64,000 nucleotides of DNA from a virus (taxonomy: Duplodnaviria > Heunggongvirae > Uroviricota > Caudoviricetes). Below the pieces are notes generated by a model that saw only the letters and a list, made by a program, of their open reading frames with translations, was not told where the DNA came from and did not search any database. The position numbers were made by a program, and so were the translations under genes. The stretch's first letter is position 1. Every line of letters begins with the position of its first letter. Below, piece by piece: positions 14,118-15,962 of the stretch. Location: positions 64,001 through 128,000 of IMG/VR virus record IMGVR_UViG_3300010396_000003; one strand, given 5' to 3'.

Positions 14118-14191
14118 TGGTAGGCCCGGCAGGTGCTGCCCCTGCGTCCCCTGATTAAAAGTCAGGTAGTCTACTGTTGACTTACGGACCC
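14118..14191 (-). tRNA. tRNA-Lys(TTT) with non-canonical T loop
   Basis: GGGTCCG/CGGGCCT-ACCA; CCTGA-CTTTTAA-TCAGG; T arm GCAGG-GGCAGCA-CCTGC. Confidence 0.9.
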
Positions 14192-14679: not shown

Positions 14680-15105
14680 CTAAAAAGGAATGTCTTCGTC
14701 AGAAATCTCAGATCCGCCTCCACCGCCTACTGGATCGGCATCGTAATGATCTTGCGCCGGCGCCGCGGTCCGTTCCGGCTTATCGCCAAGCATCTTCATG
14801 GTTGAAGCTACAATCTCAAATGCCGTGCGCTTTTCTCCGCTGCGCTTGTCTTCCCATTGGCGAGATTGAATTTTACCTTCGACGTAAACAAGCGAACCCT
14901 TCTTTAAGTATTGCTGACAAATTTCTGCCAACTTACTCCAGGCAATGATCTTGTGCCACTCGATGTGTTTCTGCTTTTGCCCTGAGCGATCTTTAAATGT
15001 TTCGTCTGTGGCGATTGAGAAATTACAAACGGCTGAGCCGCCAGAAGTGTAACGAGTCTCGGGATCTTTACCGAGACGGCCGATAAGAAAAACTTTGTTT
15101 AGCAT
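14680..15105 (-). CDS. ssb: Single-stranded DNA-binding protein
   Basis: MLNKVFLIGRLGKDPETRYT, EWHKI, YLKKGSLVYVEGK, C-terminal DEDIPF. Confidence 0.97.
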   Translation of the reverse strand: MLNKVFLIGRLGKDPETRYTSGGSAVCNFSIATDETFKDRSGQKQKHIEWHKIIAWSKLAEICQQYLKKGSLVYVEGKIQSRQWEDKRSGEKRTAFEIVASTMKMLGDKPERTAAPAQDHYDADPVGGGGGSEISDEDIPF

Positions 15106-15128: not shown

Positions 15129-15228
15129 TGGAGCGTCTGGCGAGATTTGAACTCGCATCAACCAGTTAGAACTGGCTGCTCTGTCGGTTTTAGAGACCGA
15201 TGCTTTCACCCGGTTAAGCTACAGACGC
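15129..15228 (-). tRNA. Amber suppressor tRNA(CTA) with long variable arm, 100 nt
   Basis: GCGTCTG/CAGACGC-TCCA; D stem GCTT/AAGC; TCGGT-CTCTAAA-ACCGA; 27-nt variable region with an 8-bp stem; GCGAG-TTCAAAT-CTCGC. Confidence 0.9.
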
Positions 15229-15266: not shown

Positions 15267-15311
15267 TGGAGCGGGGTGTGGCTTTGAACCACGTCTTTCG
15301 ACGCACCCCGC
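15267..15311 (-). ncRNA. Mini-tRNA (45 nt), Gly-like acceptor, no D or anticodon arm
   Basis: GCGGGGT-G-CGTC-GAAA-GAC(G)-TGG-TTCAAAG-CCA-C-ACCCCGC-TCCA. Confidence 0.75.
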
Positions 15312-15312
15312 G

Positions 15313-15358
15313 TGGCAGGGGCTTCGGATTTGATCCACGCGCTTTCACGCGAGCCCCT
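15313..15358 (-). ncRNA. Mini-tRNA (46 nt), Trp-like acceptor, no D or anticodon arm
   Basis: AGGGGCT-C-GCGT-GAAA-GCGC-GT-GGA-TCAAA-TCC-GA-AGCCCCT-GCCA. Confidence 0.75.
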
Positions 15359-15359
15359 A

Positions 15360-15412
15360 TGGTGCCGGCGTCCCATTCAAGAGAGCGCGGCGCTAGCTTC
15401 CGCACCGCCGGC
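15360..15412 (-). ncRNA. Mini-tRNA (53 nt), D-armless, CTA centred in its single loop
   Basis: GCCGGCG-GTGCGG-AAGCTAGCG-CCGCGC-TCTC-TTGAAT-GGGA-CGCCGGC-ACCA. Confidence 0.7.
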
Positions 15413-15928
15413 ATTGGTGTGCGCGGTAGGAGTCGAACCTACCTCGATCAATTTAGAGTTGACCTGTCCAGCCGCTGGACCACGCGCACATAAACTGGCA
15501 CGCCCGGTCGGATTCTCACCGACAACTTCTCTGTTTAGATCAGAGCACTCTCGTAGTTGAGTTACGGGCGTATCTTTGTAAACTCGATAATTTGAGAGCA
15601 CCGATCGCGCAACTCCGCTAATCGGCGCCGTACAAATGGCTGTAAATCTTTCTGCTTCGGGAAAGTCTGGTTCAAACCAGCAATAATGTTGAATCTGAGA
15701 TACGGCGAGTTTGCCGGCAACACGTTTAAGTGCGGCCAGATCGGGCACACCAATCAGAACGTGGTTGTTCCAACACTCATTCTGTTGGACTGTATAAGGC
15801 TTATGCGTGAAGCGCATAGTCGCCTGTTCTACTGCATGATTGGATTGGATGATTTGATGCTGGATGGGAAGATCCATCCGAATGAAGGTATAAACGTAAG
15901 GTTCTTGAGAAATCTAGGTAAATGTCAT
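15377..15928 (-). CDS. Pth2-like peptidyl-tRNA hydrolase; in-frame TAG at codon 5; frame continues through the tRNA genes
   Basis: ATG15928 ACA TTT ACC TAG ATT TCT CAA GAA CCT TAC GTT TAT ACC TTC ATT CGG ATG15877 gives MTFT*ISQEPYVYTFIRMDLP..QSNHA..WFEPD..FTAICTAP; ORF track shows only 15377-15877. Confidence 0.75.
15415..15489 (-). tRNA. Amber suppressor tRNA(CTA), A73
   Basis: GTGCGCG/CGCGCAC-ACCA; D stem GTCC/GGAC; GTCAA-CTCTAAA-TTGAT; GTAGG-TTCGACT-CCTAC. Confidence 0.9.
15496..15571 (-). tRNA. Amber suppressor tRNA(CTA), A1-U72, G73, atypical T loop
   Basis: ACGCCCG/CGGGCGT-GCCA; D stem ACTC/GAGT; CTCTG-ATCTAAA-CAGAG; GTCGG-TGAGAAT-CCGAC. Confidence 0.85.
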
Positions 15929-15934
15929 GCCGCG

Positions 15935-15962
15935 AATGTATCACGGAACAAAGCCTTGTCAA
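15935..15962 (-). promoter_or_regulatory. Sigma70 promoter with extended -10; predicted start at the ATG (leaderless)
   Basis: TTGACA (15962-15957), 16 nt ending TGA, TACATT (15940-15935), 6 nt, ATG 15928. Confidence 0.7.

Follow-up and report, generated by a model that had tools for sequence, protein, structure and literature searches.

Probable suppressor gating of a Pth2-like phage gene by a conserved early amber codon

How is a phage gene translated when its reading frame meets a stop codon at the fifth codon? This question is raised by a gene on the minus strand of a 64,000-nucleotide (nt) stretch of viral DNA, hereafter the window, which comprises bases 64001-128000 of the IMG/VR record IMGVR_UViG_3300010396_000003, a complete 152,425-bp virus genome with direct terminal repeats and of soil metagenome origin. 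The gene encodes a protein with a Pth2 (peptidyl-tRNA hydrolase) fold, its frame is interrupted near the start by an amber codon (TAG), and it is directly abutted by tRNAs that carry the matching CUA anticodon. Comparison of this locus with its relatives suggests that the gene is probably suppressor-gated, in the sense that translation of the Pth2-like enzyme would depend on the phage's own suppressor tRNA.

Upstream of the gene, a sigma-70-type promoter is located at 15935-15962 on the minus strand; it consists of a TTGACA -35 box (15962-15957), a 16-nt spacer and an extended -10 element, TG-a-TACATT, ending at 15935, and was recovered in a promoter scan with 10 of 12 matches and the extended TG present. 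Because the -10 box ends only 6 nt ahead of the ATG at 15928, the transcript is predicted to begin at the A of this ATG and the mRNA to be leaderless. The gate itself (ATG ACA TTT ACC TAG; 15914-15928, minus strand) holds four sense codons, the in-frame amber codon at 15916-15914 and ATT as the next codon, so that the frame from ATG 15928 reads M-T-F-T-stop, continues with ISQEPYVYTFIR and then reaches Met18, encoded by the ATG at 15877. The stretch between the TAG and ATG 15877 contains no ATG, GTG or TTG, and no Shine-Dalgarno sequence was found ahead of either ATG 15877 or ATG 15928. The original prediction for this DNA had used the same promoter to place the start on ATG 15928 and had proposed that the segment YVYTFIR, between the TAG and the only later ATG, corresponds to the first strand of a Pth2 domain; all coordinates involved hold on re-examination.

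The Pth2-fold domain extends from Ile6 to Lys118 (15575-15913, minus strand), as supported by AlphaFold, Foldseek, a profile search of PDB and tblastn. An AlphaFold model of the protein, built with 52 relatives, showed a confident Pth2 fold, with a predicted local distance difference test score (pLDDT) of 92.3 and a predicted template modelling score (pTM) of 0.86. Its strand beta1 is formed by YVYTFIR (15898-15878; model residues 6-12, pLDDT >90), and is therefore encoded upstream of Met18. The top 14 matches of the model among PDB structures were all Pth2/Bit1 proteins or the Pth2-like Atu0240 (template modelling (TM) scores 0.65-0.75, Foldseek probability 1.0), including Bit1 (1q7s), AF2095, MJ0051, PH1539, Ta0108 and the Sulfolobus solfataricus Pth2. 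A profile of the 52 relatives, run against PDB sequences, reached E=3e-5 for 24bt_A, a peptidyl-tRNA hydrolase, but only E=0.12 for MJ0051.

Relatives of the protein are numerous, as a HMMER search of 1.84 billion representative proteins returned 383 of them. When GenBank phages were searched with tblastn, the alignments spanned query residues 1-11 to 118, i.e., they began upstream of Met18 and covered beta1. Other searches yielded less: the PHROGs search gave two weak families only, both of unknown function, the sole match in a word-indexed protein search was the window's own truncated open reading frame (ORF), and a nucleotide search of a phage collection recovered only fragments of tRNAs and of the gene for the single-stranded DNA-binding protein (SSB). 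Across the family, the R and D of beta1, the Q..HA of helix 1, the D of an E-P-D motif and a T-A...P motif are kept. Compared with Pth2 (PF01981; human Bit1/PTRH2 1q7s, Archaeoglobus fulgidus AF2095 3erj, Methanocaldococcus jannaschii MJ0051 2zv3, S. solfataricus 1xty), the phage protein is alike in its alpha/beta fold (TM 0.68-0.75), in size and in the signature positions R-x-D-L of beta1, Q..HA, the acidic D of E-P-D (equivalent to DAG in Pth2) and T-A...P; it differs in having no Pfam match, a shortened GK loop, an early stop codon and a linkage to suppressor tRNAs.

An early stop ahead of beta1 proved to be widespread among the relatives. Two locus searches were carried out with narrower family alignments (A2 and A3), the 52-sequence alignment being too diverse for this purpose, and gave 96 distinct IMG/VR loci, of which 47 are TAG-gated, two are TGA-gated, none is TAA-gated and 40 have a plain start. 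The layout ATG-X(1-13)-TAG is found in these 47 loci and in ten gated GenBank phages, where it takes the narrower form ATG-X(1-5)-TAG in every case. Within the first IMG/VR set, an in-frame stop lies just ahead of beta1 in 41 of 43 loci (40 TAG, one TGA); the resulting mini-ORF is two codons long in 25 of the 41, with ATG ACA TAG, as in the relative L004, being the commonest form. Gates of the same kind occur in Arash (ATG CTG TAG), CBB (ATG GCA CAA TAG), XbC2 (ATG GCT CAC TAG), ME3 (ATG ACT TAG), RsoM2USA (ATG TTG TAG) and LR756511 (ATG ACT CAC TAG), and the huge phages LR756500, LR756501 and LR756504 are likewise gated by ATG-X-TAG. The early stop is conserved among homologs that share 23-60% protein identity. 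Of the 41 loci, 21 have an A and 19 a G directly after the stop, one has a C and none a T, so that this base is a purine in 40 of 41. A purine 3' of an amber codon favours suppression in Escherichia coli.

The distance between the stop and beta1 varies from 0 to 14 residues and the residues flanking the stop are not conserved; the codon is therefore best described, from these alignments, as a gate and not as one that specifies a key residue. In a maximum-likelihood tree of the domain, gated members fall into several well-separated clades and the well-supported branches force at least five changes of state between gated and ungated. Taken across the alignments, the early stop is a trait of the family, though not a universal one, as the homologs in XacN1 and Stenotrophomonas phage CM1 have a fused C-terminal domain and no early stop, and that of RaK2 has a plain ATG start. 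One plain-start subfamily (MNSYIYTFIRED...; L115, L117, L122, L126, L142 and others) has a tRNA-CUA located 52-54 nt downstream of the gene. At the other extreme, the gene of LR756501 (L087), a 735-kb phage, combines the early TAG with a second in-frame stop within the domain, and this genome may be partly recoded. Three relatives (L166-L168) are found on contigs binned to metagenome-assembled genomes of Acidobacteriota (Angelobacter), Abditibacteriaceae and Binatia, two of them being TAG-gated with CUA tRNAs; these bins hint either at possible hosts or at phage contigs binned into bacterial genomes. In GenBank, the gene is missed or shortened by annotation: several matches have no annotated coding sequence, and the one annotated in Arash is a 50-residue fragment.

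The start signals were compared as well. Of the 18 loci in the clade of the window, 16 carry an exact TTGAC box some 30 nt ahead of the ATG, and two a Shine-Dalgarno-like sequence. Among gated loci of other clades, a Shine-Dalgarno sequence lies 7-16 nt upstream of the pre-stop ATG in 29 of 33. Both types of signal mark the ATG ahead of the stop, which makes it a credible start codon for the gate. The original prediction was to fall if homologs had a sense codon here or began at the MDLP Met; the opposite was observed, in that homologs keep an early in-frame TAG after a credible start and their alignments reach upstream of Met18 into beta1.

Three tRNAs with a CUA anticodon are encoded on the same strand beyond the 3' end of the domain, i.e., tRNA-CUA no. 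1 at 15496-15571, no. 2 at 15415-15489 and no. 3 at 15129-15228. The first (Infernal score 48.7 bits) has an A1-U72 pair, G73 and an atypical T loop, TGAGAAT; it is missed by ARAGORN at default settings and is detected by Infernal or with a relaxed ARAGORN threshold. The third (62.6 bits) has a long variable arm. CUA tRNAs had been predicted downstream of the gene, which is correct, although their number is three and not two. All three adjoin the Pth2-like gene and lie 21-34 kb away from the main tRNA array of the phage. Their best identity to the other tRNAs of the phage is 0.64-0.71, a level of similarity that points neither to their origin nor to the amino acid that would be inserted.

Several further tRNA-related features were observed in this region. 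Small elements that resemble tRNAs, with acceptor stems of 7 bp and CCA ends, are found between CUA tRNAs no. 2 and no. 3 (15267-15412, minus strand). In relatives, the first of them again follows the CUA tRNA, with compensatory changes, read by eye, in its acceptor stem (GCCGGCG/CGCCGGC in the window, GCCGGAG/CTCCGGC in L048, GCGGGAG/CTCCCGC in L043 and GCCGGAC/GTCCGGC in L046); the TGA that eventually closes the gene's frame is located within this element. The loop of the variable-arm hairpin of tRNA-CUA no. 3, UUCUAAC, repeats the CUA anticodon-loop motif, and long-arm CUA tRNAs similar to no. 3 are present in L043, L049 and L052. In the main tRNA array, outside the window at genome position ~48,738, relaxed ARAGORN shows a tRNA that reads UUA (ochre) by its anticodon, likewise has a long arm and is 67% identical to tRNA-CUA no. 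3. Like tRNA-CUA no. 1, a tRNA-Lys(UUU) with an odd T arm (14121-14191, minus strand) is detected by Infernal and missed by default ARAGORN.

A further indication that these tRNAs read the gate comes from the way in which the stop and the anticodon vary together. A tRNA-CUA is located within 4 kb of the gene in 34 of the 47 TAG-gated loci and a tRNA-UCA in none, while both TGA-gated loci (L084 and L150) have a tRNA-UCA within 1 kb and no CUA. The gate is ATG AAG TGA in L150, whose sister L147 has ATG ACT TAG and a tRNA-CUA 77 nt upstream; in L084, the stop comes after ten sense codons. No mismatched pair of stop and anticodon was found (TAG-CUA in 34 loci, TGA-UCA in two; Fisher's exact p ~0.002). 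ARAGORN overlooks some of the CUA tRNAs near these loci, and Infernal or a relaxed threshold recovers more. Among the complete gated genomes checked, a CUA tRNA is present in each, with that of LR756504 being doubtful; it lies 13 kb from the gene in RsoM2USA, 8 kb in LR756511 and 3.7 kb in CBB. Taken together, the conserved early TAG, the credible starts, the co-occurring tRNA-CUA and the TGA/UCA pairs lend support to the suppressor-gated reading proposed originally for this locus.

A number of observations weigh against this reading. The case for gating is wholly comparative, and the sequencing runs listed as containing this sequence are of soil-metagenome DNA, with none of RNA among them. 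A plain ATG start is found in 40 of the 96 members, and 22 of these 40 are still located beside a tRNA-CUA, which in many cases lies some 54 nt downstream; the link between the gene and the tRNA therefore does not need the gate and would be older or broader than it. As many as 13 of the 47 gated loci have no CUA tRNA within 4 kb, these loci being partial windows of larger contigs, and LR756504 has just an ambiguous tRNA with an 8-nt anticodon loop that contains CUA. The TGA/UCA cases are confined to one clade and perhaps represent one or two evolutionary events. The codon that follows the stop is mostly ATN or GTN, and is ATG or GTG in four loci, which fits reinitiation at a weak start equally well. 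With regard to the chemistry of the product, the catalytic residues of Pth2, going by work on the S. solfataricus enzyme, are the GK-loop Lys and the DAG Asp. The Asp equivalent, in E-P-D, is nearly invariant in the family; the GK loop is short by two residues, and Gln aligns with its Lys. A Pfam search gave no family match up to E=1, PF01981 included. The fold modelled is hence that of Pth2, while hydrolase chemistry is only putative, and the original assignment as a peptidyl-tRNA hydrolase stands for the fold, by AlphaFold and Foldseek, and for the PDB profile search but finds no counterpart in Pfam.

Among the other explanations, the one that fares best is that ATG-X-TAG represents a separate leader minigene of 2-5 codons, with ribosomes restarting at or near the next codon, so that the enzyme would be made without suppression. 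The minigene would then only tune expression, or it would load peptidyl-tRNA as the bar minigenes of phage lambda do. Several features of the gate are in line with such an arrangement, i.e., the post-stop codon, in most loci ATN or GTN, falls at the position that the ATG takes in plain-start homologs, an ATG or GTG directly follows the TAG in four of the 96 loci (L042, L052, L054 and L083), and two-codon minigenes are the commonest (25 of 41). The codon after the stop may accordingly be either the remnant of a former start codon or a site where translation weakly restarts, and reinitiation may operate at individual loci. However, GUU, GUA and GUC are two positions off AUG, and many loci have a codon after the stop that is not a start at all (AAC, AAT, GAT, GAC, GGG, CTG, AAG, GCG or GAA). 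Reinitiation requires no particular stop, yet the family has 47 TAG, two TGA and no TAA although TAA and TGA are the common stops in these genomes, and both TGA loci carry a tRNA-UCA instead of a tRNA-CUA. Suppression predicts just such a near-exclusive use of TAG, replaced by TGA in precisely those loci that have a UCA tRNA, whereas reinitiation would accept any stop; the covariation of stop and anticodon therefore favours readthrough by a suppressor, and reinitiation appears unlikely as the main route of expression.

Less probable still is a role of the early stop as a sensor of release factor 1 (RF1) or of translation stress, where the UAG would be read weakly by near-cognate tRNAs of the host when RF1 is limiting, with the CUA tRNAs of the phage serving some other end. 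An early in-frame stop in a gene resembling a translation factor does recall prfB, and the 13 gated loci without a CUA tRNA within 4 kb could be accommodated in this way. Against it, the stop and the anticodon vary together, the complete gated genomes that were checked do carry CUA tRNAs, and the tRNAs of the window share a transcription unit with the gene, which they directly abut.

The remaining alternatives concern the status of the TAG in this genome as a whole. The 234 ORFs of the phage end in TAA (103), TGA (92) and TAG (39), and one of the TAG stops closes the SSB gene directly after the conserved DIPF. A crude test for recoding, based on ORF lengths under each reassignment, gave no TAG signal. 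When the whole 152-kb genome was scanned for ATG-X(1-13)-TAG, 14 candidates were obtained, of which only the Pth2-like gene is convincing. Each of the other 13 either has an ordinary start codon only a few codons away or represents the tail of an upstream gene; the one at genome position 39060 was rejected after inspection. These data indicate that the phage otherwise uses the standard code and not code 15. Phage CUA tRNAs are typical of TAG-recoded phages (PMC13037316; preprint by Borges et al., 10.1101/2021.08.26.457843), but genome-wide reassignment of TAG to a sense codon is highly improbable where TAG closes 39 of 234 ORFs, SSB among them, and no other gene has a convincing in-frame TAG, and so is a decaying pseudogene, which would not retain one stop at one place over about 50 loci with an intact, well-folding domain.

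If the gene is suppressor-gated, one promoter would give rise to a leaderless transcript that carries the five-codon gate, the gene for the Pth2-fold enzyme and its own amber-suppressor tRNAs. Ribosomes would begin at the 5' AUG and reach the UAG at codon 5, where RF1 would terminate translation if no charged tRNA-CUA were there to decode it. The enzyme would thus be made only when the suppressor tRNA is present, and in proportion to the activity of the suppressor. We infer that the gate is read through, that the protein acts on acylated or peptidyl-tRNA, and that the gate ties the dose of the enzyme to suppressor activity. Such a coupling could serve to clear peptidyl-tRNA and the stalled-ribosome by-products of readthrough, or to restrain the suppressor itself.

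The 3' end of the gene in the window adds a feature of its own. Homology stops at Lys118 (15577-15575), one codon (GAT) follows, and tRNA-CUA no. 1 begins at 15571 with no stop between it and the gene; the frame stays open to the TGA at 15379-15377 (15377-15379, minus strand), which lies beyond two tRNAs and inside the small tRNA-like element downstream of tRNA no. 2. The ORF called under translation table 11 consequently translates two tRNAs. In relatives, the frame closes at a corresponding TGA, some 35 nt beyond the first tRNA. A tRNA starts within 30 nt of the end of the domain in 17 loci, and 14 of these 17 are stop-free both before and throughout the tRNA; the relative frame varies among the 17, and three of the tRNAs carry anticodons other than CUA. 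As about half of all frames across these gene-abutting tRNAs are stop-free, the open frame through the tRNA is just suggestive, and more weight falls on the missing stop ahead of the tRNA. Once cut by RNase P, such an mRNA would carry no stop codon; the protein might be freed by ribosome rescue, or else be translated onwards through tRNAs not yet processed. The traits that set the window's clade apart are hence a predicted leaderless mRNA, three different CUA tRNAs and the lack of a stop before the first of them. A stopless gene of this kind is also seen in L069, where the gated Pth2-like gene is likewise without its own stop before a tRNA; at L069:2457-2847, about 1.2 kb upstream of this TAG-gated gene, a permuted phage transfer-messenger RNA (101 bits) was found.

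A more elaborate and rather doubtful extension of suppressor gating would make the locus a closed-loop controller of suppression. The UAG gate would gauge the activity of the suppressor, and the enzyme would act either on this tRNA in its acylated or peptidyl state or on ribosomes that have stalled once past the stop. In the clade of the window, translation would also be coupled to tRNA maturation and to non-stop rescue, as ribosomes that pass the gate would meet no stop and would either continue into the sequences of the suppressor tRNAs or arrive at the 3' end cut by RNase P. Just downstream of the suppressor tRNAs lies the SSB gene (14680-15105, minus strand), in which readthrough of the TAG after DIPF would append 12 residues to the C-terminal tip, a site of partner binding; such an extension could be either a cost of suppression or a further target.

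The arrangement described here shares elements with several known systems. In TAG-recoded phages (code 15, with TAG as Gln; crAss-like, Lak and jumbo phages), a phage tRNA-CUA also reads in-frame TAG codons and a role in the timing of expression has been proposed. Those phages, however, have dozens of mostly late genes with many TAGs and avoid TAG as a stop, whereas here the code is standard and only one gene has a TAG in frame, a lone one that always falls among the first few codons. As in prfB, which encodes release factor 2 and contains an early in-frame UGA, output would hinge on how efficiently an early stop is read; prfB, in contrast, requires a +1 frameshift and senses its own product, while here the frame is unchanged and a separate tRNA is the likely reader. 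The bar minigenes of phage lambda (AUG AUA UAA) cause peptidyl-tRNA drop-off in pth-defective hosts, and they resemble the gate in being ORFs of 2-4 codons plus a stop on an abundant phage transcript and in their thematic link to peptidyl-tRNA hydrolase. The bar minigenes nevertheless stand alone and use UAA, whereas the stop of the gate matches a phage tRNA and is followed in frame by a full enzyme domain.

A parallel may also be drawn with the orphan amber-suppressor tRNAs of standard-code jumbo phages such as XacN1, in which CUA tRNAs likewise exist alongside TAG as a normal stop. For XacN1, 18 amber stops were read through in silico by its authors and target genes were not identified (PMC5852040). 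Here, by comparison, the Pth2-like family offers a conserved target in many phages, although the homolog of XacN1 itself is an ungated C-terminal fusion. The presence of PTH2 in jumbo phages has been reported (Iyer et al. 2021; PMC7824862), and the account of PTH2 given there, as far as that section goes, has no remark on early stop codons or suppressor tRNAs. A search of the open-access literature found no description of a stop-gated Pth2-like gene with suppressor tRNAs, in agreement with the statement in the original prediction that none was known.

Taking into consideration that many amber-suppressor tRNAs of standard-code phages, including those of cultured jumbo phages, have no known target, the gated gene represents a natural target that can be tested. 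The cassette is present in culturable systems, i.e., Salmonella phage Arash, Pectobacterium phage CBB, Acinetobacter phage ME3 and Ralstonia phage RsoM2USA. There is also a consequence for annotation, as the gene is routinely missed or shortened in GenBank records. If suppressor gating is true, one suppressor tRNA can serve a phage as a switch dedicated to one gene, with no recoding of the genome, and the link between suppression and an activity like that of peptidyl-tRNA hydrolase would hint at how phages handle the cost of stop codon readthrough.
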